Positions 1,750 to 39,097 of a stretch of 43,658 nt of DNA are shown here, piece after piece. Each line of letters begins with the position of its first letter. Position 1 is the first letter of the stretch. The notes beneath the pieces are model-generated. The model was not told the DNA's origin. It saw only the letters and a list, made by a program, of their open reading frames with translations, and ran no database searches. The DNA lies in assembly GCA_041666725.1 (NCBI GenBank), contig JBAYGL010000001.1, positions 1 to 43,658 of the forward strand. Reading direction: 5' to 3'. The position numbers and the translations under genes are program-made. Origin of the DNA: Limisphaerales bacterium. GTDB lineage: Bacteria > Verrucomicrobiota > Verrucomicrobiia > Limisphaerales > SXTU01.

Positions 1750-4512
1750 GTGTCTTCCCACGAGGAACAATCCGCCGGCCCGCCGGCCTTCAACCAGGTC
1801 ACGGTCCCGGACCTGTGGCAGCAGCAGGCTGTCACCGCGTTGCGCGCGGGCAAGGACGTGGTCGTTCACGCGCCGACCGGCTCGGGCAAGACGCTTGTCT
1901 TCGAACTGTGGTCGAACTTCGGCAAGCCGCACGGGCAGGCCATCTACACCGTGCCGACGCGCGCGCTGGCGAACGACAAGCTCGCCGAGTGGCGAGCGCG
2001 CGGCTGGCATGTGGGCATCGCCACCGGCGACCTGAGCGAGAATCTCGACGCGCCCATCCTCGTCGCCACGCTCGAGACGCAGAAATACCGGCTCATACGC
2101 GGCGACGGCCCGGCGCTGCTGGTGATCGACGAGTATCAGATGCTCGCCGACGGCGACCGTGGCCTGAACTACGAACTCGCCATCGCGATGGCCCCGCCGC
2201 AGACGCGCCTGCTGCTCCTGAGCGGCAGCGTGGAGAACCCGCACCACATCGTGAAGTGGCTGGAGCGGCTCGGACGCAAGGCGCAGCTCGTCCGGCACCT
2301 GCACCGGCCCGTGCCGCTGGAGGAAGTCCACGCCAACGACCTGAGCGTCCACGTCCCCAGCGAGGTGAAGGGCTACTGGCCGCGTCTCGTGGCAAAGGCG
2401 CTCGCCGACGACCTGGGGCCGGTTCTGATTTTCGCGCCCCGTCGCAAGGAGACGGAAGCCCTCGCCGGCGAACTTGCGCGGTTCCTCCCGAATCACAACC
2501 CGCTCACACTCACAACAGAGCAGAAGACGCTCGTCGGCGAGAAGGTCGCGCGGATGTTGCGCTGCCGTGTCGCATATCACCACAGCGGCTTGAGCTACGG
2601 TGCGCGCGCCGGAGTCATCGAGCCGCTGACCAAGGCGGGGCAGTTGCGCGTCGTGGTCGCCACCATGGGGCTGGCGGCGGGCATCAACTTCTCGCTGCGC
2701 AGCGTTGCGCTGGCGGCGGATTCGTATCGGCGCGATGGCGTGGAGATACCGATCCGGCCTGATGAAATTTTGCAGATGTTCGGACGTGCGGGCCGGCGTG
2801 GAATCGACGAGGTGGGTTACGTGCTGGTGTCGGCCAACGGTGTCCGCCTGATTGACGGTCGTCCGGCCTTTCTCGCGCGGTCGGGCCTTGTGGATTGGAG
2901 CGCGCTCCTGGGGATAATGGGCGCGGCGGCGCAGGCGGGGCTGGACCCGTTCGGCGAGGCGGTGCGCGTGCAGGAACGGCTGTTCACGACGAAGCCGATC
3001 CTGCTGGGCGTGGAAGGCGCGCTGAAAAATCCCGACACGCCCTGCGGCCTCAAGACTGACGGTGAACGCGCCCGGCATGTGCGCAAGATGGTGCGGCAGT
3101 TTCTGAACAGCCGGGGCGAATGGGAGGCGTGGCCCGCGCTCAGGGACGTGCCGGCGGAGCGCGTGCAGGTGATGGAGCCGCTCGGCGAAGGCGTGCTGGC
3201 CATGTTGAAGATGAGCGGGCCGGTCGCCGCCCGCCGGCGCGCGACGACGGCGGACGTGCTCGGTGCGGCCTTGGTGGGGCGAGACTCTGTCGAGCCCCGT
3301 TCCCAGCGCAGCGAGGCGAGTGGAGCGAGCATCTCGGCAGAACCTCACGACCAAGATGCTCGCTTTGCTCGCGCCGACTCCGTCGGCAGTCAGGGCTCGA
3401 CAGAGTCTCGCCCTGCCGAGTCCACGATTCACCTCCGGCCTGCGCTTGCAGTTGAGTCCGCCGTCGAGAAACTCGGCGAAGGCGGGACGCTGGTGAAGCT
3501 GCCGGACGGGACGTTCGCCCGTTCGCTCGCGGTGGCGGACGTGTTGAACGGCCGGCAAATCCTGCTCGCGAAGTGGGTGCGCAAACTGACGGACTGGAAC
3601 GCCCGGCAGACTTCATTGCAGAGCTGGCGCGAACTGGTCGTGCCCGCGCTGGAAAAGTGTTTCTCGGCCGAGAAGACGCCGGTGCTGGCCGTCGAGTATC
3701 CGAAGGCGACGCGGTTGAAGGATGAGTTCGCCGAGCATGTGCCGGAGGTTGGCCTCGGGCCTGTGCGTGCCGTGGTATCGCTCGGCCAGCTCACGCTCAA
3801 GGCCTGTGTGGACGCCCACGGCGTCGCGCTGTGGAAGCCGCCGGAGCGCGAGGTCTTCCCGGAGGACTGCGCGCGCTGCCCCTGCGTGCCGCTCTGCAAA
3901 CAGCTCCCCACCGGCACCGGCGTTGCCACGATCTGGCGGCGGCTCGGCCTCGTGGACGCGGCGGGGGTGCCGACGCGGCGCGGGCGCATCGTGAGCTTCT
4001 TCCACTCCGGCGACGGCCTCGCGGTCGCCGCGGCGCTGGAAGACGAGTCGCTGCCCATCGAGGAATTGAGCTACGAACTGGCGAACCTGCACGCGGGCCA
4101 CCGCTTCGCGAAGGGTGACGCACGCTGGGACGGGCGCATCGCGCTGGCCTGCCAGCGGCTCTTTGGCCCGCAGACTTTCACCGGTTATCTGGACAACGGT
4201 GTGCCGCCGGAATACGGCGCGGGTGCCGAGGAGATCGCGGCGGACGTGCATCGCGACCCGCTGGGTAAGAACGGCTGGACGACGGACTTTCTGGGCATCG
4301 GGGACATTGACCGGATGATCATCGAATGGCGCAGCGTGCTGCGGCAGATCGCGCACGCACCGGACCTGGAATGGCCCCGCTGGCAGGCGCTGAAGGACCG
4401 CGCCAAGGCCATCCTGCGCGAGACCGACTCGCCGACGCTGACGGACCTGCCGCCGCTGGAACACGCGCAGACCAGGCGCGTGAACCACCAGCTCTCGCTT
4501 CGGCGGCACTGA
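1750..4512 (+). CDS. Ski2-like (HelY-type) DEAD/DEAH-box SF2 helicase with ~500-aa C-terminal extension
   Basis: GTG start at 1750. Motifs: I APTGSGKT, II DEYQ, III SGS, ATMGLAAGINF, VI QMFGRAGRRG. The C-terminal half has a Cys cluster (CARCPCVPLC). It contains an in-frame palindromic element at 3274-3416. Confidence 0.85.
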   Translation: MSSHEEQSAGPPAFNQVTVPDLWQQQAVTALRAGKDVVVHAPTGSGKTLVFELWSNFGKPHGQAIYTVPTRALANDKLAEWRARGWHVGIATGDLSENLDAPILVATLETQKYRLIRGDGPALLVIDEYQMLADGDRGLNYELAIAMAPPQTRLLLLSGSVENPHHIVKWLERLGRKAQLVRHLHRPVPLEEVHANDLSVHVPSEVKGYWPRLVAKALADDLGPVLIFAPRRKETEALAGELARFLPNHNPLTLTTEQKTLVGEKVARMLRCRVAYHHSGLSYGARAGVIEPLTKAGQLRVVVATMGLAAGINFSLRSVALAADSYRRDGVEIPIRPDEILQMFGRAGRRGIDEVGYVLVSANGVRLIDGRPAFLARSGLVDWSALLGIMGAAAQAGLDPFGEAVRVQERLFTTKPILLGVEGALKNPDTPCGLKTDGERARHVRKMVRQFLNSRGEWEAWPALRDVPAERVQVMEPLGEGVLAMLKMSGPVAARRRATTADVLGAALVGRDSVEPRSQRSEASGASISAEPHDQDARFARADSVGSQGSTESRPAESTIHLRPALAVESAVEKLGEGGTLVKLPDGTFARSLAVADVLNGRQILLAKWVRKLTDWNARQTSLQSWRELVVPALEKCFSAEKTPVLAVEYPKATRLKDEFAEHVPEVGLGPVRAVVSLGQLTLKACVDAHGVALWKPPEREVFPEDCARCPCVPLCKQLPTGTGVATIWRRLGLVDAAGVPTRRGRIVSFFHSGDGLAVAAALEDESLPIEELSYELANLHAGHRFAKGDARWDGRIALACQRLFGPQTFTGYLDNGVPPEYGAGAEEIAADVHRDPLGKNGWTTDFLGIGDIDRMIIEWRSVLRQIAHAPDLEWPRWQALKDRAKAILRETDSPTLTDLPPLEHAQTRRVNHQLSLRRH
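3274..3416. repeat. family A palindromic element (GTRGGGCGAGACTCYGTCGAGCCC...) located inside the helicase ORF
   Basis: Perfect 21-bp inverted repeat 3277-3297 / 3393-3413 (gggcgagactctgtcgagccc / gggctcgacagagtctcgccc), plus inner 11-bp arms 3324-3334 / 3354-3364. A second copy of the same family is intergenic at 22786-23121. Confidence 0.85.
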
Positions 4513-6073: not shown

Positions 6074-6988
6074 ATGGGATTGTTCTCCAAAATCAAGGAA
6101 GGCCTGCACAAGACCGCCGCCAAGCTCGGCCACGAAATCAAACGCATTGTCAGCGGTTCACCCAAGCTGACGGGCAAGACGCTTGAGGAACTGGAGCACG
6201 CGCTGCTCGGTGCCGACCTCGGCATGGCGATGACCCAGCAGATCCTGTCCGCCGTAAAGAAAGCATACGAATCGCAGGGCACCGCCGGTCTGGATGTCTT
6301 CGCCATCGCGGCGCGGGAGGTGGAACACAGCCTGTCCGCCACCAACTCCACGCTCCACCGCCAGCCGGGGGGCTTGACCGTCGTCTCCGTCGTCGGCGTC
6401 AACGGCACGGGCAAGACCACCACCACCGCCAAACTCGCGCATCTCTTACAGGGCCAAGGCAAGCCCGTCGTCCTCGCCGCCTGCGACACGTTCCGCGCCG
6501 CCGCCATTGAGCAGCTCAAGCTCTGGGGCGCGCGCCTCAAGGTCGAGGTCATCGCCGGTGCCTACAACGCCGACCCTGCCGCCGTCGCGCACGACGCCAT
6601 CACCGCTGCGACCGCACGCGGTGCGAATTATCTGATCGTGGACACCGCCGGCCGTCTGCACACCAAGAGCAACCTGATGAAGGAATTGCAGAAGGTGCAC
6701 CGCGTGATGGGCAAGCAGCTCCCCGGTGCGCCGCATGAAGTGCTGCTCGTCCTCGACGCCACCACCGGCATGAACGCCCTCCAGCAGGCGCGCGAGTTTC
6801 ACAAGGCCGTTACGCTCACCGGCCTCGTCATCACCAAGCTCGACGGCACGAGCAAGGGCGGGATGGTCGTGGCGATACAGAAAGAGCTGGGCCTGCCCAT
6901 CAAGTTCATCGGCGTCGGTGAGCAGCCCGACGACCTCCAGCCCTTCGACGCGAAGCAGTTCGCCGAGGCGCTTTTCAGCGAGAAGTGA
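6074..6988 (+). CDS. ftsY: signal recognition particle receptor FtsY
   Basis: SRP GTPase motifs [15 protein letters not shown] (G1), DTAGRLH (G3) and [10 protein letters not shown] (G4), with C-terminal [12 protein letters not shown]. Confidence 0.93.
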
Positions 6989-8003
6989 CCGGTCGGTTCA
7001 CTGCGTTCATAGCAGATTCCCCGCGCAGCAACCGCTCCAAGTCCGCGCACACCGCCTCGAACGTCCGCGTCTGCGCCTCGTAGGTGAACGAGCCGACGTG
7101 TGGCAGCAGGATGACGTTGTCCAAGTCCTCGAAGCCCGCCTCGTTTGGTGTCCACGCTTCAGCGTGTTCGGGAGCGCCAGTCCGCCTGAAGGCGGGACAC
7201 CGAACTTTAGGCGGCTCAATCTCACGCACGTCCAGCGCGGCACCGGCGAGGTGGCCGCCTTGCAACGCCGCGAGCAACGCCGTTTCATCCACCACGCCGC
7301 CGCGTGAGGTGTTCACGAAGAACGCGCCGCGCTTCATCGTGGCGAAGGTGCGCTCGTTGAACATCCGCTTCGTCTCCGGCGTGAGCGGCGAGTGCGTGGT
7401 GACGAAGTCGGCCTGGGCCAGGGCCTCTTCCAGCTTCGTGCAAAGCGTCGCCCCTGTTTCAGCCAACGTGACATCGCCCGGCTTCACGAACGGGTCGAAC
7501 ACGACGAGCCGCATCCCGAAGACCGCCGCACGCTTCGCCACGAGCCTGCCGATGCGGCCGAACCCGCAGATCGCCAGTGTCTTGCCCGCGAGTTCGATGC
7601 CCGTGCAGCCGCGCCGGTCCCAGCCGCCGGCCTTCGTTGAGCGGTCGGCCTGGGGAATCTTCCGTGCGAGCGCAAGCAGCAGACCGAGCGTGAGCTCCGC
7701 CACGCTGACCGCGTTCGCATCCAGCGGCGCGGTGACCGTGATGCCGCGTTCCGTCGCTGTCTTCAGGTCAATGTTGTCCAGCCCGACGCCCACGCGACCG
7801 ATCCCTATGAGCTTCGGTGCAGCGGCGAGCACGTCCGCCGTGAGCTGCGTCTGGTTGCGCACCATGACCGTGCGTGCGTCGGCCAAAGCGGCCTTCAACT
7901 TAGCCGCGTCCTTCCACAAAGCCGGCTCGCGCACGACGGAGAACTTCGCAGCCAGCACGTCAATCGCCGGCGCTTGCAGGTCTTCGGTGATGAGGATGTC
8001 CAT
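6975..8003 (-). CDS. D-isomer-specific 2-hydroxyacid dehydrogenase / phosphoglycerate dehydrogenase-like (no ACT domain)
   Basis: I prefer the ATG at 8001-8003 (MDILITEDLQ...) because the track's N-terminal extension MDTELRHAKAWTPNF is encoded by REP units. NAD fold GFGRIGRLVA, catalytic motifs NTSRGG, DVREIEP and LLPHVGS. Contains an in-frame REP doublet at 7143-7205. The 3' end overlaps ftsY by 14 nt (convergent). Confidence 0.8.
   Translation of the reverse strand: MDILITEDLQAPAIDVLAAKFSVVREPALWKDAAKLKAALADARTVMVRNQTQLTADVLAAAPKLIGIGRVGVGLDNIDLKTATERGITVTAPLDANAVSVAELTLGLLLALARKIPQADRSTKAGGWDRRGCTGIELAGKTLAICGFGRIGRLVAKRAAVFGMRLVVFDPFVKPGDVTLAETGATLCTKLEEALAQADFVTTHSPLTPETKRMFNERTFATMKRGAFFVNTSRGGVVDETALLAALQGGHLAGAALDVREIEPPKVRCPAFRRTGAPEHAEAWTPNEAGFEDLDNVILLPHVGSFTYEAQTRTFEAVCADLERLLRGESAMNAVNRPVTSR
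7143..7205. repeat. REP doublet (REPIN-like, two inverted 24-nt units) inside the dehydrogenase CDS
   Basis: Unit 7143-7166 is GTTTGGTGTCCACGCTTCAGCGTG. Unit 7182-7205 is the reverse complement of GTTCGGTGTCCCGCCTTCAGGCGG. The architecture matches the intergenic doublet at 39038-39097. Confidence 0.85.
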
Positions 8004-8006
8004 AAA

Positions 8007-8098
8007 GTTCGGTGTCCACGCTTTAGCGTGTCTTAGTTCGGTGTCCACCCTTCAGGGTGTCAGGCATACCGGAACACGCTAAAGCGTGGACACCAAAC
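8007..8098. repeat. REP cluster (three units) immediately downstream of the RAYT gene
   Basis: 8007-8030 GTTCGGTGTCCACGCTTTAGCGTG (forward), 8036-8059 GTTCGGTGTCCACCCTTCAGGGTG (forward), 8075-8098 CACGCTAAAGCGTGGACACCAAAC (inverted). Confidence 0.9.
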
Positions 8099-8101
8099 AA
8101 A

Positions 8102-8719
8102 TCACATCTCCGGCTCATCCCACCCTTTCCCGTATTCCAGAATTGGATATGCCTTCCATGTTTGCTCGGCGAACTCACGCCCCATTCCGGCCAGGTATTC
8201 CTGTGCGCTGGAGAACGGCCAGTCCTGCCAGCGCTCAACGTAGCCATGACGAACCGGATTGTGATGAACGTAGTTTAGCGTCGCCCAGAAATGGGCATCG
8301 TTCCTCATGTAACGCTCCGCCGCCCCGCACCAGACCTGCCGGCCGCGCTGCTGTTCCTCGCCGTTCCACTGGAAGGAAGTCTTTCCGTGGAGTTTCCCCA
8401 ATGCTCCGAGCAGTCCGGGAATGTCGCTGCTTTCAACCAGCAGGTGGTAGTGATTCGGCAGCACGCACCAGGCGTGGACCTGGGCACGACTGGCCTCCAG
8501 CAAGGTCAGCACCATTCCCGAGAATGACTCCATCCGCTCCCCGCTCGAACCAATCCACGGCTGGTGTTCGTAGCAGGCGGCCGTGACGTGATAGCGCGTA
8601 TGCTCCCCGGCACGGTGAGGTGGACGATGCCAGGGCAGACCCTGGTTTTTGCGCCACGCCATGAGTTGCTCCCTTTGATCGAGAGCAAGCTTGCGCCAAA
8701 GATAGGCTGGATTGGACAT
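8102..8719 (-). CDS. rayT: REP-associated tyrosine transposase (RAYT; IS200/IS605-like HUH enzyme)
   Basis: ATG at 8717-8719 (MSNPAYLWRKL...). The longer track ORF would overlap thrC. HUH motif in LPNHYHLLV and a catalytic-Tyr region ATLNYVHHNPVRHGYV. About 205 aa, flanked on both sides by REP units. Confidence 0.85.
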   Translation of the reverse strand: MSNPAYLWRKLALDQREQLMAWRKNQGLPWHRPPHRAGEHTRYHVTAACYEHQPWIGSSGERMESFSGMVLTLLEASRAQVHAWCVLPNHYHLLVESSDIPGLLGALGKLHGKTSFQWNGEEQQRGRQVWCGAAERYMRNDAHFWATLNYVHHNPVRHGYVERWQDWPFSSAQEYLAGMGREFAEQTWKAYPILEYGKGWDEPEM

Positions 8720-8733
8720 GAGCGCGTCTCGGA

Positions 8734-8781
8734 CACCCTGAAGGGTGGACACCAAACGCTCGGCGTCCACGCTTGAGCGTG
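8734..8781. repeat. REP pair upstream of the RAYT gene
   Basis: 8734-8757 CACCCTGAAGGGTGGACACCAAAC (inverted unit) and 8758-8781 GCTCGGCGTCCACGCTTGAGCGTG (degenerate forward unit). It ends 2 nt before the thrC stop codon. Confidence 0.85.
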
Positions 8782-8783
8782 AA

Positions 8784-10004
8784 TCAAATCTTCTCCCATT
8801 CAATCGGCTTCGTGCAGTCCACGCGCGGCAACTGTTCGCGCACGGCCTCGGGATATTTCTGCGCTGCGCCCGTGTTGAACACGACGATGCGTTCGCCCGG
8901 CTTGATCTTGCCTTCCTTGAGCAACACCTCCAACGCGCCGAAGCAGACGGCGGTTTCCGGGCAGAGCGCGATGCCTTCGCGTGAGGACGCGAGTTGCATC
9001 CACTTGGGAATGTCCGCCTCGGGCGTCGCCAGCGCCACCCCGCCGCTCGCGCGCACGGCATCGAGGATCATGAAGTCGCCGACCGCCGCCGGCACGCGGA
9101 TGCCGCTGGCGATGGTTGCGGCATTTTCAAACTTCTTCGCGAAACGGTCGCCTCTCCTGAACGCCTCCGCAATCGGCGCGCAGCCGGTGCTCTGGCAGGA
9201 AATCATGCGCGGCTTCTTCGACGATTTCAGCCAGCCGAGCGCCTCAAGCTCCTGAAATGCCTTCCACATGCCGATGAGTCCGGTGCCGCCGCCGGTCGGG
9301 TAGAGAATCACGTCGGGCAGCTCCCAGTCGAACTGCTCGGCGAGTTCGAGGCCCATCGTCTTCTTGCCCTCGATGCGATACGGCTCCTTGAGCGTGCTCA
9401 CGTCGAACCAGCCCTTCTTCGTCTTGCCCTCGCCGACGATGCGTCCGCAGTCGGTGATGAGGCCGTTGACGAGGAAGGTTTTCGCGCCCGCGAGGAAGCA
9501 CTCCTTCTGGTTGATGACCGGCGTGTCCTCGGGCATGAACACATACGCCTCCATGCCCGCGCGCGCCGCGTAGGCGGCCATCGCCCCGCCCGCGTTGCCG
9601 GCGGTGGGACAGGCGACGCGCCTGGTCCCGAACTCGTTCGCCATCGAGATGGCCATCGTCATGCCGCGCGCCTTGAAGCTGCCGGTTGGGAGGCGGCTCT
9701 CGTCCTTCACGTAGAGATGTTGCACGCCAAAATGCGCCGCCAGTCGCTTTGTTTCGAGGATCGGCGTGATGGTCTCCACCAGCGAAACAATCTTCGAGGG
9801 GTCGCGCACCGGGAGCATTTCGAGATACCGCCAGATGGTCGGTGGACGACCCGCGAGCTCTTTCTTCGGAAACTTCTTCTTGAGCGTGTCGAGGTCGTAT
9901 TTGACCCACAGCGGCTTCTGGCAGGCGGGGCAGAGGTTGTGGACCTTGTCCGCATCGTAACGCGTGATGCAGTTGGCGCATTCCAAGTGGGTGACGAAAT
10001 TCAT
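8784..10004 (-). CDS. thrC: threonine synthase
   Basis: N-terminal zinc-ribbon-like CANC...CPAC, PLP-lysine motif PTGSFKARGM, and GNAGGAMAAYAA. 406 aa. Confidence 0.92.
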   Translation of the reverse strand: MNFVTHLECANCITRYDADKVHNLCPACQKPLWVKYDLDTLKKKFPKKELAGRPPTIWRYLEMLPVRDPSKIVSLVETITPILETKRLAAHFGVQHLYVKDESRLPTGSFKARGMTMAISMANEFGTRRVACPTAGNAGGAMAAYAARAGMEAYVFMPEDTPVINQKECFLAGAKTFLVNGLITDCGRIVGEGKTKKGWFDVSTLKEPYRIEGKKTMGLELAEQFDWELPDVILYPTGGGTGLIGMWKAFQELEALGWLKSSKKPRMISCQSTGCAPIAEAFRRGDRFAKKFENAATIASGIRVPAAVGDFMILDAVRASGGVALATPEADIPKWMQLASSREGIALCPETAVCFGALEVLLKEGKIKPGERIVVFNTGAAQKYPEAVREQLPRVDCTKPIEWEKI

Positions 10005-10070: not shown

Positions 10071-10177
10071 GGAGCGCGGCGTTCACGCCGCAGAAGAGTG
10101 GGTTGCACAGAAACCGATCGTATTTGCCGGGGCGTTTCGTTTACTCGCAGCCTTCTGCGGCGTGAACGCCGCGCTCC
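10071..10177. repeat. family D palindromic element (perfect 26-bp arms, 55-nt loop)
   Basis: 10071-10096 ggagcgcggcgttcacgccgcagaag is the exact reverse complement of 10152-10177 cttctgcggcgtgaacgccgcgctcc. It lies in the divergent thrC/mlaE spacer. A degenerate copy is at 14732-14828. Confidence 0.9.
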
Positions 10178-14709: not shown

Positions 14710-14731
14710 CGTTATGATCGTAAACGCTTCA

Positions 14732-14828
14732 GGGGCGCGGTGTTCACGCCGCAGAAAGCCCCGGGAGTAAAAGTGCGCTGTAATCACCACTGACTGCCGC
14801 ACGCTTCTGCGGCATGAATGCCGCACTC
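14732..14828. repeat. family D palindromic element, degenerate copy
   Basis: ggggcgcggtgttcacgccgcagaaagc ... gcttctgcggcatgaatgccgcactc. The arms are related to the 10071-10177 element. It lies upstream of the peroxidase gene. Confidence 0.65.
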
Positions 14829-17035: not shown

Positions 17036-17368
17036 ATGGCTGAAGGCAACATCATCAACGTCACGGAGACCTCGTTCGAAGCCGACGTCCTCAAGTCCGC
17101 CACCCCCGTCCTCGTGGACTTCTGGGCCGAGTGGTGCGGCCCCTGCAAGATGCTCCTGCCCGTGCTCAACGAGCTTTCCACCGAGTATGCCGGCAAGGTG
17201 AAGATCGCGAAGATCAACGTGGACCAGCACCAGCAGCTTGCCGCCAAATACGAGATTCAGAGCATCCCGGCGCTGCTCTTCTTCAAGGGCGGCCAGGTCG
17301 TTGCCCAGGTCGTCGGCGTGCGCTCCAAGAAGGATTTGAAGGCGCAGCTCGACCAGTTGGTTGCTTAA
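17036..17368 (+). CDS. trxA: thioredoxin
   Basis: ATG at 17036 (MAEGNIINVTETSF...). Canonical VDFWAEWCGPCK active site and cis-Pro region SIPALLFF. 110 aa. Confidence 0.9.
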   Translation: MAEGNIINVTETSFEADVLKSATPVLVDFWAEWCGPCKMLLPVLNELSTEYAGKVKIAKINVDQHQQLAAKYEIQSIPALLFFKGGQVVAQVVGVRSKKDLKAQLDQLVA

Positions 17369-17379
17369 GTCTCACCATC

Positions 17380-17709
17380 ATGGCTGCCGGGAATCTTATC
17401 GAAGTCTCTGAGGCTTCCTTTGAAGCTGAAGTTTTGAAGTCGGCGACGCCGGTTGTTGTGGATTTTACAAGTGCGGATTGTGGTCCTTGCAGGATGCTCA
17501 CCCCGACGCTGAACGAGTTGGCCACCGAATACGCCGGCAAGGTCAAAATTGCCAAGGTAGATGTTCATCAGAACACGGCGTTGGCTTCGCAATTTGGTGT
17601 CACCGCCATGCCGACGCTGTTGTTCATCAAAGGCGGCAAGGTCGTCGCACAAACGGTGGGATTGCGCTCCAAGAAGGACTTGAAGACGCAGCTCGACCAG
17701 ATCGTGTGA
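17380..17709 (+). CDS. thioredoxin paralogue with atypical active-site context (SADCGPCR)
   Basis: ATG at 17380 (MAAGNLIEVSEASF...). Colinear with the upstream trxA and roughly two-thirds identical by eye. CGPC is retained, but both flanking Trp residues are replaced (FWAEWC becomes FTSADC). Confidence 0.85.
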   Translation: MAAGNLIEVSEASFEAEVLKSATPVVVDFTSADCGPCRMLTPTLNELATEYAGKVKIAKVDVHQNTALASQFGVTAMPTLLFIKGGKVVAQTVGLRSKKDLKTQLDQIV

Positions 17710-18753: not shown

Positions 18754-18835
18754 GGAGCAGGATTAGGATCAGGATTACGAGCAGGAGCCGAAAGCAGGAA
18801 CCTCCTGCTCCTGATCTTGATCCTAATCCTGCTCC
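18754..18835. repeat. family E hexamer-periodic hairpin, copy 2
   Basis: Arms 18754-18787 (ggagcaggattaggatcaggattacgagcaggag) and 18802-18835 are complementary at 31 of 34 positions. It lies between the GspF-like gene and the aminotransferase gene. Confidence 0.85.
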
Positions 18836-20032: not shown

Positions 20033-20102
20033 GTAGGAGACGACGTGAGGAGTCTCACTTGTTTCTCGGGGAAAGTGAGAGACTCCTCACGTCGTCTCCT
20101 AC
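20033..20102. repeat. family C palindromic element (GTAGGAGACGACGTGAGGAGTCTC...), copy 1
   Basis: gtaggagacgacgtgaggagtctcactt ... aagtgagagactcctcacgtcgtctcctac. Near-perfect ~28-bp arms with a 2-nt bulge. It starts 10 nt after the aminotransferase stop. Confidence 0.9.
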
Positions 20103-20195
20103 CACGGGACGCGCGACCCTGCCTTGGGTCAGCAGCAGTTCGAGCGCGCCCTGACGAACTCACGGAACACGCATTACTCATTACCCTCTCCTTCC

Positions 20196-20987
20196 ATGAC
20201 CATCAAAGACACCGAGTTCGCCGACATTCCCACGCCGGACGGCCCGATGCGCACCTACGTCTTCCGCCCCGCGGCTGAGGGCAAGTATCCCGGCATCCTG
20301 CTCTACTCTGAGATTTTCCAAGTCACCGGTCCCATCCGCCGCACCGCCGCGTTGCTGGCGGGCCACGGCTTCATCGTCGCCGTGCCGGAGATTTACCACG
20401 AGTTTCTCCCTGCCGGCACCGTGCTCGCCTACGACCAGGCTGGTGCGGACAAGGGCAACGAGTTGAAGACCACCAAGGAGCTGGCCAGCTACGACACGGA
20501 CTCCCGCGCCGTGCTGGACTTCCTCCGCGCGCATCCGCTCTGCACGGGCAGGCTCGGCGTGATGGGCATCTGCATCGGCGGACACCTGAGTTTCCGCGCG
20601 AGCATGAACCCCGGCGTGCTGGCCGGCGTGTGCTTCTACGCGACGGACATCCACAAGCGCGGCCTCGGCAAAGGCAAGTGCGACAACACGCTCGACCGCG
20701 TCCCGGAACTCACCGCCGAGATGCTGATGATCTGGGGCCGCCAGGACCCGCACGTCCCGCGCGAAGGCCGCGCGCTGCTCCACAACGCGATGGCCGACGC
20801 GAACCTGAACTTCACCTGGCACGAGTTCAACGGCCAGCACGCCTTCCTCCGCGACGAAGGCCACCGCTACGACCCCGCGCTCGCGCTCACCTGCTACGGC
20901 CTCGTCGTCGAACTTTTCAAGCGCAAGCTCGGCGAAGGCGATTTGCCTGCGAAGGTTGCAGGCGGCCCGGCGGAGTCGAAGCACTGA
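20196..20987 (+). CDS. dienelactone hydrolase family protein
   Basis: I prefer the ATG at 20196 (MTIKDTEFADIPTPDGPMRTYVFRP). Nucleophile elbow with Cys (VMGICIGGH) and C-terminal FNGQHAF. 263 aa. Confidence 0.85.
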   Translation: MTIKDTEFADIPTPDGPMRTYVFRPAAEGKYPGILLYSEIFQVTGPIRRTAALLAGHGFIVAVPEIYHEFLPAGTVLAYDQAGADKGNELKTTKELASYDTDSRAVLDFLRAHPLCTGRLGVMGICIGGHLSFRASMNPGVLAGVCFYATDIHKRGLGKGKCDNTLDRVPELTAEMLMIWGRQDPHVPREGRALLHNAMADANLNFTWHEFNGQHAFLRDEGHRYDPALALTCYGLVVELFKRKLGEGDLPAKVAGGPAESKH

Positions 20988-20996
20988 CCGAATCTC

Positions 20997-21088
20997 GTAG
21001 GAGACGACGTGAGGAGTCTCTGACTAACGCGGAACGCGGAAGCCGGAACGCGGAGCAAAAATTAGAAACTCCTCGCGTTGTCTCCTGC
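20997..21088. repeat. family C palindromic element, copy 2 (right arm degenerate, loop with GGAACGCGGA repeats)
   Basis: Left arm 20997-21020 is identical to the copy 1 head. The right arm 21065-21088 (gaaactcctcgcgttgtctcctgc) carries about 5 mismatches. Confidence 0.75.
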
Positions 21089-22774: not shown

Positions 22775-22785
22775 GCCGGGTGCCG

Positions 22786-23121
22786 GTAGGGCGAGACTCC
22801 GTCGAGCCCCATTGCGAGCGCAGCGAGGCGAGCAGAGCGAGCATCTCCCATCCGGCCTGCCCTTCCCTGAGCCAATGCAGCAGTTGAAGGCCGCACTACT
22901 TTAACGCAGAGACGCGGAGAACGCAGAGGAACGCAGAGTTCGGCCGAACATGCCGGTTCATTCCTGGGTCTCCTCGCCGGTCGCTTCTCTGCGAAGCTTT
23001 GCGTTCTCCGCGTCTCTGCGTTGAGAATGCGCGCTCTATTTCCTACCGCGTCGCTGGCTGAGATGCTCGCTTCGCTCGCACCGCTGCGCGGTTTCGACGG
23101 CTCGACGGAGTCTCGCCCTAC
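22786..23121. repeat. family A palindromic element, intergenic copy with a foreign palindrome nested in its loop
   Basis: The ~60-nt arms 22786-22847 (gtagggcgagactccgtcgagcccc...gagcgagcatctc) and 23060-23121 (gagatgctcgc...ggctcgacggagtctcgccctac) are complementary. The 212-nt centre carries family F. Confidence 0.85.
22903..23022. repeat. family F palindromic element (AACGCAGAGACGCGGAGAACGC...)
   Basis: Perfect 22-bp inverted repeat 22903-22924 / 23001-23022 with internal ~9-nt periodicity (aacgcagag / acgcggag / aacgcagag). Confidence 0.85.
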
Positions 23122-23252
23122 CGGGCTTGGTCGGCACAGTTTGCTGAAAATTTCTTTGAACAATTGGCTCAAACTTTGTCTAAATCGCCGGAAACCTTGA
23201 CAGGCCATGCACAATACGCGCCGTCACATGACCGGGCAGCCGGAGCAGCCAC

Positions 23253-39037: not shown

Positions 39038-39097
39038 GTTCGGTGTCCACGCTTTAGCGTGCCGTCGCCCAGACACGCTGAAGCGTGGACACCAAAC
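39038..39097. repeat. REP doublet (REPIN-like), intergenic
   Basis: 39038-39061 GTTCGGTGTCCACGCTTTAGCGTG and the inverted unit 39074-39097 CACGCTGAAGCGTGGACACCAAAC. It lies between the GT4 gene and the protease gene. Confidence 0.9.

Follow-up and report, generated by a model that had tools for sequence, protein, structure and literature searches.

The question raised by this locus is how a repetitive extragenic palindromic (REP) doublet comes to lie in frame within a dehydrogenase gene, between two of its catalytic residues, in an open reading frame (ORF) that stays open. The DNA analysed, hereafter the window, is a stretch of 43,658 nt from a Limisphaerales bacterium (Verrucomicrobiota; assembly GCA_041666725.1, contig JBAYGL010000001.1, positions 1 to 43,658). 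The host gene is the minus-strand ORF 6975..8003, which encodes a 342-residue PHGDH-like D-2-hydroxyacid dehydrogenase, and the element occupies 7143..7205 on the same strand. The doublet, a REP doublet forming a hairpin (REPIN), was probably inserted once in an ancestral allele, left the ORF open, was tolerated as an extra loop of a functional enzyme, and apparently spread between related lineages by recombination.

The inserted segment, encoding VRCPAFRRTGAPEHAEAWTPN, reads GTTCGGTGTCCCGCCTTCAGGCGG-ACTGGCGCTCCC-GAACACGCTGAAGCGTGGACACCAAAC on the coding strand (7205..7143), with two inverted REP units arranged around a 12-nt spacer. Its 63 nt amount to 21 codons, flanked in the protein by DVREIEPPK and EAGFEDLDNVILLPHVGS, and it is located between E263 (motif DVREIEPP) and H302 (motif LLPHVGS). 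The original prediction had placed an in-frame REP doublet between these two motifs of the minus-strand ORF; sequence and coordinates agree with it, and the position can be read directly from the sequence. The element consists of three parts: (i) REP arm 1 (7143..7169, plus strand; GTTTGGTGTCCACGCTTCAGCGTGTTC), with the standard ACGC/GCGT stem and a perfect match to the family core; (ii) the variable spacer (7170..7181), read as TGAP in the window and as PDAP or PDAA in other alleles; (iii) REP arm 2 (7182..7205, minus strand; GTTCGGTGTCCCGCCTTCAGGCGG), whose compensated CGCC/GGCG stem is rare in the count of stem variants. The in-gene unit starts with GTT(C/T)GG, and no GTAG tetranucleotide is found at the hairpin foot of this type of unit, called here type A. 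A target-site duplication is likewise absent from the in-gene copy, the flanks ...CCTAAA and GAGGCG... containing no direct repeat. The predicted RNA fold of the 63 nt has an energy of -27.8 kcal/mol (z = -2.9), and with the flanks included the value is -41.9 kcal/mol for the filled site versus -3.0 for an empty one.

Membership of the doublet in a REP family of the window was established with the core GGTGTCCACGCTTNAGCGTG. Allowing up to 3 mismatches, the core is matched 8 times in the window and 0 times in 100 dinucleotide-preserving shuffles. The matches fall in four loci (7147; 8011, 8040 and 8075; 8734 and 8762; 39042 and 39074), and the second in-gene arm, being the CGCC/GGCG stem variant, is outside the reach of the pattern. 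Taken as 64 nt, the in-gene doublet shows 83% complementarity to the intergenic one at 8035-8098. The family assignment made earlier, which linked the insert to the REPs around a REP-associated tyrosine transposase (RAYT) gene and to a second doublet, is thereby borne out. The RAYT gene (8102..8719, minus strand) encodes 205 residues from MSNPAYLW, with the HUH motif NHYHLLV and the tyrosine motif YVHHNPV. Its product matches the NCBIfam model NF047646 (REP_Tyr_transpos) at E 9.2e-23 and 80.7 bits, barely above the cutoff of 80; in Pfam it is missed at default settings, with Y1_Tnp giving a weak match of 7e-4. REPs of the same family flank it on both sides: three units separate the start of the dehydrogenase gene from the stop of RAYT (8007..8098: 8007-8030 plus, 8036-8059 plus, 8074-8098 minus), and two units separate the start of RAYT from the stop of thrC at 8784 (8732..8781: 8732-8757 minus, 8758-8781 plus). 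The remaining copy is the intergenic REPIN of 60 nt at 39038..39097, identified through its core matches.

Comparison with orthologues reveals that the segment is absent from most relatives. In the best 120 homologues the spacing from EP (DVRExEP) to (V/I)I(L)PH is 12 residues in 94 proteins and 11 in 7; the exceptions have 32-33 residues (7 proteins) or 56 (one protein), and the window has 32. Among orthologous loci from metagenomes the spacing is 10-13 residues in 67 and 32 in one, and the metagenome scan gave one additional type A allele, L123. The sequence EPPKER-SAFETMDNVILLPH of empty alleles corresponds to EPPK-VRCPAFRRTGAPEHAEAWTPN-EAGFEDLDNVILLPH in the window, so that KERSAFE is replaced by K[insert]EAGFE with the loss of one neighbouring codon; at the DNA level, AAR/GAG CGC AGC GCC TTC becomes AAA/[63 nt]/GAG GCG GGC TTC. 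In agreement, megablast alignments of the window with empty loci stop at about 7135 and restart at about 7205-7210. It had been proposed that removal of the doublet restores the usual spacing of the motifs, and that relatives would lack the segment. The homologues and the metagenome loci bear this out. One correction applies to the size: the net gain over empty orthologues is 20 codons (342 versus 322 residues), not 21.

L002 (JGI 3300042199), L003 (Logan SRR31037541) and L009 (JGI 3300050184) carry the same insert, joined at the same points and pointing the same way, as do L123 (Ga0172367) and the proteins P0002 and P0003, all from different samples. Filled L123 and empty L122 derive from one metagenome. 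All filled alleles have in common the flank EAGFEDLD, versus ERSAFETMD in the empty ones.

The wider family was surveyed by an exact-pattern scan with one genome per species, which returned at least 112 stretches. Among the matches listed (about 870 kb), nearly all lie in Verrucomicrobiota, Limisphaerales or Pedosphaera metagenome-assembled genomes (MAGs), and they contain 211 units and 46 inverted doublets. The modal doublet length is 63 nt (17/46), and 26/46 measure 62-64 nt. All spacers of these 46 doublets are different, and no conserved flank, target motif or target-site duplication was found among them. The 4-nt inner stems are perfectly complementary in 223 of 237 units and occur in at least six variants: ACGC/GCGT (150), ACCC/GGGT (44), CGGC/GCCG (14), CGCC/GGCG (6), AGCC/GGCT (5) and ATGC/GCAT (3). 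This covariation is strong and indicates that the small hairpin is maintained by compensatory change. Most doublets in the matches listed (L010-L121) are heterodimers of one ACGC/GCGT arm and one ACCC/GGGT arm, each able to form its own small hairpin, with inner stems unable to pair together. The in-gene copy fits this rule as ACGC + CGCC, CGCC being a doubly compensated derivative of ACCC. Some REP-carrying MAGs are labelled Akkermansia muciniphila, Klebsiella sp., Bifidobacteriaceae, Candidatus Sulfotelmatobacter, Pyrinomonadaceae or Thermoguttaceae (e.g. L012, L016, L018, L043, L050 and L083) and probably represent mislabelled or contaminated bins; L018 has a RAYT homologue with four flanking REP units, an arrangement like that of the window.

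The residence of such an element within a gene allows nucleic-acid constraint to be distinguished from protein constraint. In a comparison of the window, L002 and L009, the two arms together (51 nt) show only 0-2 differences between alleles, and 0/17 of their third codon positions have changed, whereas 43-54/153 flanking third positions differ (28-35%). For arm 1, the variation among type A alleles is limited to the hairpin-loop base (G/A) and one near-terminal base (AAC/AGC), its third codon positions being unchanged. The 12-nt spacer shows 2-6 differences (17-50% divergence). By our own calculation, the chance of 0/17 changes at a divergence of about 31% is about 0.002 per pair. The pattern indicates that the arms are constrained at the nucleic-acid level, being conserved even at synonymous sites, and that the spacer drifts; judged by these alignments, the in-gene copy evolves like the intergenic REPINs and unlike a neutral peptide loop. 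A recent origin of the whole insert is excluded by the divergence of the spacer. Gene conversion from other REPIN copies is an unlikely cause of the arm conservation, the arm 2 variant being nearly private to the locus: of the 6 occurrences of CGCC/GGCG in all DNA examined, 5 are in this dehydrogenase insert. The suggestion that the palindrome is tolerated as a protein loop is therefore retained in part: a loop is predicted, but it is not simply passive, since its arms are conserved as nucleotides.

Such conservation might mean that the hairpin or the peptide is kept for a use and not merely tolerated, for instance as a structure in mRNA or single-stranded DNA that regulates expression, decay or translation pausing, as a RAYT binding site, or as a new protein loop. 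The synonymous-site conservation of the arms beside a drifting spacer, the preservation of the hairpin through compensatory changes, the difference in folding energy between the filled site with its flanks and the empty site, and the persistence and apparent spread of the allele are all in keeping with such a role. However, the same arm and spacer pattern is shown by intergenic copies of the family and is a general REPIN signature (PMC3116915), so a gene-specific role is unneeded; moreover, most orthologues do without any insert, and the peptide itself differs at the spacer (TGAP, PDAP, PDAA). Co-option is thus considered unlikely.

The same site has received other elements. In further orthologues, the 4-codon interval of the type A insert also holds at least three other, unrelated types of insert. 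Type B (P0005, P0006/L004 and P0028/L005) is a GTAG-tagged inverted doublet, CTGTAGCGGCGCTCTGCGAGCGCC...GGCGGTCACAGACCGCCGCTACAG, which in L004 and L005 carries CTGTAGCGGCG...CGCCGCTACAG. A second type B copy is located in the spacer between thrC and the dehydrogenase gene of L004, L002 and L123, which identifies type B as a genuine repeat family. A search of the window for this GTAG-type REP found no copies, and types A and B are therefore read as families belonging to different genomes. Type C (P0044/L007, +44 residues) is composed of four 14-nt units opposite four 19-nt units that form a long hairpin, and type D (P0093/L008, +24 residues) is partly palindromic. All four types preserve the frame, and no comparable internal indel is found elsewhere in the protein in the orthologue alignment (A1). 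As a rough inference, the probability of four hits in an interval of about 5 codons out of 322 by chance would be of the order of 1e-6, an estimate which assumes equal insertion likelihood and equal tolerance along the 322 codons. Since the elements are unrelated and the REPIN flanks are without a target motif, the favoured explanation is that selection filters insertions through a permissive loop, and not that a mechanism targets them.

The alternative is a targeted hot spot, at which the REPIN was inserted independently several times at a site preferred by RAYT or REPIN, with no recombination involved. The type A alleles are indeed polyphyletic on the gene tree, types B (L004, L005, P0005), C (L007) and D (L008) share the interval, and in the window and L004 the family found in the gene also lies just upstream of it. 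Nevertheless, the rare CGCC/GGCG arm, identical junctions and the derived flank EAGFEDLD are common to every type A allele, features which independent insertions of master copies would not reproduce. Unrelated families are unlikely to share a target specificity, the REPIN flanks contain no conserved target, and the recurrence is accounted for more simply by the filter of a permissive loop. Repeated targeting is accordingly regarded as improbable.

The private CGCC/GGCG arm, the junctions and the flank common to all type A alleles argue for a single origin of the type A insert. A codon-bootstrapped neighbour-joining tree, from which the insert columns were excluded, joins the window to empty L001, L122 and L124 (100%) and L002 to empty L125-128 (93%), leaving L009 on its own. 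The distribution of the filled allele is at odds with this gene tree, and recombination is suggested as the means of its spread. Informative sites, at which the window agrees with the other filled alleles only (A) or with the empty alleles only (E), were ordered along the gene with the ambiguous zone around the insert excluded. Read in order, they give EAEEEEEE-AAAAAA-EEEEEEEEE, the A sites occupying gene positions 489-750 and the E sites 31-470 and 934-1014; in permutations the run length has p = 0.001 and the run count p = 0.004. These sites are most simply explained, on moderate evidence, by homologous recombination in which a segment of about 0.4-0.5 kb brought the insert with it. The alternative, that the insert was ancestral and was later excised precisely several times, was rejected: the empty alleles have the outgroup-like ERSAFETMD and the filled ones share EAGFEDLD.

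The spacer between thrC and the dehydrogenase gene was compared in the window, L001, L122, L124, L125, L002, L123, L004 and L009. Only in the window lineage is it occupied by RAYT and its flanking REPs (about 780 nt, window 8004-8783). In the relatives the spacer measures 59-140 nt and contains a different palindromic element per lineage: a GTAGTCGCAGG... doublet in L122 and L124, the type B GTAG doublet in L002, L123 and L004, a CACGAAGGCACGAAGG-type hairpin in L001 and L125, and yet another element in L009.

It is also necessary to establish whether the host gene is still a working one. Its true start is the ATG at 8003 (MDILITEDL), and its product matches the Pfam domains 2-Hacid_dh_C (PF02826, 3.5e-56) and 2-Hacid_dh (PF00389, 7.6e-29). 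The catalytic Arg-Glu-His residues correspond to R234, E263 and H302, which are invariant in 32 orthologues, as is D258. The closest structures in the PDB are those of PHGDH; the human enzyme aligns with residues 23-268 and 292-331, and across the gap 23 query residues face 2 human ones. The SerA equivalog cutoffs are missed (TIGR01327, 302.9 bits with a cutoff of 454; NF008759, 227.3 with a cutoff of 404). Scores below these cutoffs are the reason why the protein is named PHGDH-like only and no substrate is assigned to it from its sequence. The ORF is intact in at least 6 insert-bearing alleles from independent assemblies. Among the insert-bearing alleles dN/dS is 0.12-0.19 at dS 0.53-0.55, the same range as the 0.10-0.14 of the empty alleles; these ratios indicate that the dehydrogenase is under purifying selection with the insert present. 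The gene is thus probably functional, with the insert read through as a flexible loop. The AlphaFold2 model built from the orthologue alignment has a mean predicted local distance difference test (pLDDT) score of 84.9 and matches the fold of PHGDH crystal structures at E 8e-32. Blocks of 10 residues spanning 261-290 score 55, 51 and 49, with confident structure on either side, so the model presents the insert as a low-confidence, probably disordered loop, in line with what had been expected of it. At its 3' end the gene converges with ftsY (6074-6988, plus strand), the two sharing 14 nt (6975-6988), and the same overlap is present in L001 and L004.

A pseudogene would require that the insertion inactivated the enzyme and that the ORF is open only for want of decay. 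The position of the insert between two catalytic residues speaks for this, and the TIGR01327 score of 302.9 bits against the cutoff of 454 could mean that the function is dispensable. Against it, dN/dS remains at 0.12-0.19 over a dS of about 0.54, within the range of the empty alleles, the ORF is open in every one of at least 6 alleles, the catalytic residues are invariant, and four types of insert keep the frame, which makes inactivation very improbable. Even less credible is an error of assembly or sequencing, or that a chimeric contig placed an intergenic REP in the gene: REPs, as repeats, can mislead assemblers, and the comparison sequences are mostly metagenome assemblies, but the identical insertion and junctions recur in independent JGI, Logan and other assemblies between which the spacer and flanks have diverged. 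Neither of these two objections, both foreseen in the original prediction, is thus upheld.

The history preferred here, a single ancestral insertion followed by tolerance and recombination, can be set out as follows. A non-autonomous REPIN, mobilised by a RAYT-type transposase, would have been inserted once, in the ancestor of the window allele, the target being the DNA for a short loop between the catalytic E263 and H302. Since 63 nt, the modal length of the family, corresponds to 21 codons, and no stop occurs in the frame used, the ORF remained open, and the element would be translated as about 20 additional, probably disordered loop residues. The enzyme probably stayed functional, and the allele has persisted over a dS of about 0.5. 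The filled allele appears to have moved between related lineages via homologous recombination, and the element continues to evolve as a REPIN, with its arms kept and its spacer free.

Several points weigh against this account. The net gain is 60 nt rather than 63, so the insertion was imperfectly clean or a 3-nt deletion followed later. The participation of RAYT is an assumption: type A is a REP without the GTAG that marks those RAYT substrates which have been studied best, and its insertion sites follow no visible rule. The term surface loop is based on low pLDDT and on the variability of the segment among orthologues, and the case for translation of the insert and for enzyme activity comes solely from selection signatures. 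The argument for recombination, in turn, uses a neighbour-joining tree, few alleles and 23 informative sites, and many of the A sites are ones at which the window keeps the outgroup (ancestral) state.

The dehydrogenase is not the only gene to host this family, although units inside verified genes are only a handful of the 211 in the matches listed. Stop-to-stop ORFs spanning the REP units gave 113 candidates, which were examined with Pfam. Most were dropped as antisense or Arg-rich spurious ORFs, and L051, L104, L056:5695-7374, L100 and L026 were discarded with REPs located upstream of the true start. The in-frame cases comprise hsdS, where the REPs lie between two target-recognition domains (L048); hsdM, in two cases (L048, L053); hsdR, whose SWI2/SNF2 ATPase domain holds the REP at a point flanked by the motifs DEAH and FTATP (L056); priA, in which it separates the 3'BD from the helicase domain (L107); and, in L113, a membrane protein with Wzy_C. 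The ORFs concerned are L048:1777-3543, L048:3915-5942, L053:1-2256, L056:102-2966, L107:4578-7058 and L113:536-3094. In all six, Pfam domains or conserved sequence are found on both sides of the REP, and three kinds of type I restriction-modification subunit (hsdS, hsdM and hsdR) are among the hosts. The length is a multiple of 3 in 21/45 doublets, and typically 3-4 of the 6 frames are free of stops. With these unremarkable values, pre-adaptation of the family to coding was rejected. Roughly one quarter of random coding insertions would be expected to leave the ORF open, and tolerance of the insert by the protein is therefore the real filter on in-gene REPs.

REPs within genes have been known as a class since 2013. 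Di Nocera, De Gregorio and Rocco (BMC Genomics 14:522; PMC3733652) catalogued GTAG/CGTC REPs located wholly inside the ORFs of known proteins. More than half of these inserts are dimers or groups encoding 20-30 residues, the dimers being most abundant in the verrucomicrobium Opitutus terrae; in Xanthomonas recB, different REPs were found near one site, the host genes often serve the replication or repair of DNA, and the authors regarded the inserts as probably neutral. The present case belongs with these intragenic REPs: RAYT-type palindromes lie wholly in ORFs, and here too an in-frame REP is found in priA. It differs from them in that it has no GTAG/CGTC tag, its 5' end being GTTYGG, and in that the host gene is a metabolic dehydrogenase. 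The present analysis adds to that catalogue the empty-site orthologues, the selection tests, the conservation of the arms at synonymous sites, and a single loop with several unrelated elements.

The original prediction compared the insert with the Rickettsia palindromic elements (RPEs). As a way of working the analogy is apt, the element being in frame in a gene under purifying selection. Missed in that comparison were the RAYT-type intragenic REPs already catalogued in PMC3733652, which include dimers of 20-30 residues in a verrucomicrobium. RPEs (Ogata et al. 2000), in the accounts given by the citing papers PMC3733652 and PMC3184786, lie in frame in genes that are probably functional, to which they add a peptide, and in-frame residence in an apparently functional gene is the feature shared with the present element. 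RPEs measure about 105-146 bp (PMC3184786). They belong to an obligate intracellular alphaproteobacterium and are not known to have a dedicated transposase. The present element, in contrast, has 63 nt, lies in a free-living Limisphaerales-type verrucomicrobium and has a RAYT gene 900 bp away; size and taxon set it apart.

The anatomy is closest to the REPINs of Pseudomonas fluorescens SBW25 (Bertels and Rainey 2011; PMC3116915), described as inverted doublets with conserved arms, a looser spacer, a hairpin and compensatory changes, together with a REP-flanked RAYT. All of these features are present here, by anatomy, whereas the SBW25 REPINs are extragenic, have 71 or 110 bp and are unrelated in sequence to this 63-nt element lying in frame within a gene. 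Intragenic MITEs (miniature transposable elements with inverted repeats) and other small mobile repeats (Delihas 2007, 2011; PMC3184786) are non-autonomous repeats with an open frame fused inside a coding sequence, and the insert resembles them in being small, non-autonomous, open in frame and internal to a gene. MITEs, however, possess terminal inverted repeats and target-site duplications and derive from insertion sequences; here no duplication is seen, and RAYT is an HUH tyrosine transposase. The in-gene element is therefore of the REPIN-RAYT kind by anatomy, and not a GTAG-class REP, an RPE (by size and taxon) or a MITE (by the absent target-site duplication).

Besides the REP family, distinct palindromic repeat families are unusually many in the window. 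The GTAG-tagged perfect inverted repeats GTAGGAGACGACGTGAGGAGTCTC at 20033-20102 and 20997-21025 bracket the ORF 20124-20987, a weak match to the YghX family of hydrolases, so that a non-transposase gene is flanked by a second palindromic family. A third family, GGAGCGCGGCGTTCACGCCGCAGAAG, has perfect 26-nt arms at 10071-10096 and 10152-10177, 55 nt apart and just past the 5' end of thrC, with a related copy 4.6 kb away (14731-14756). Further inverted repeats are located at 3267-3423, 22783-22847 and 23057-23124, as well as at 1632-1703, 18754-18835 and 22903-23022, and the additional families include GGTAGGGCGAGACTCCGTCGAGCC (26-nt perfect arms), GGAGCAGGATTAGGAT... palindromes and AACGCAGAGACGCGGAGAACGCAGAG hairpins. 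Two 99-nt segments (17263-17361 and 17607-17705), 80% identical and 344 nt apart, probably belong to adjacent paralogous genes.

A bolder proposal is that the in-gene REPIN is dual-coding, under purifying selection as nucleic acid, at a position that unrelated palindromic families have colonised independently. This is rather doubtful. If true, it would imply a mechanism steering hairpin-forming elements to this point of the gene, or a usefulness of a hairpin or extra loop there; pausing of translation, processing of the mRNA or docking of RAYT would be candidate uses between the Glu of the NAD domain and the catalytic His.

The main value of the locus is as a tool: when a REPIN lies in a coding sequence, its synonymous sites serve as an internal control for constraint on the protein. 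This control separates constraint on DNA or RNA from constraint on the protein and bears on the long-term maintenance of REPINs. The loop of the D-2-hydroxyacid dehydrogenase appears to be naturally permissive for insertions and may be of use in protein engineering. The locus is a well-controlled addition to the short list of nominally extragenic palindromes residing in genes that appear to work, with empty-site orthologues, diverged filled alleles and the cognate RAYT gene alongside.

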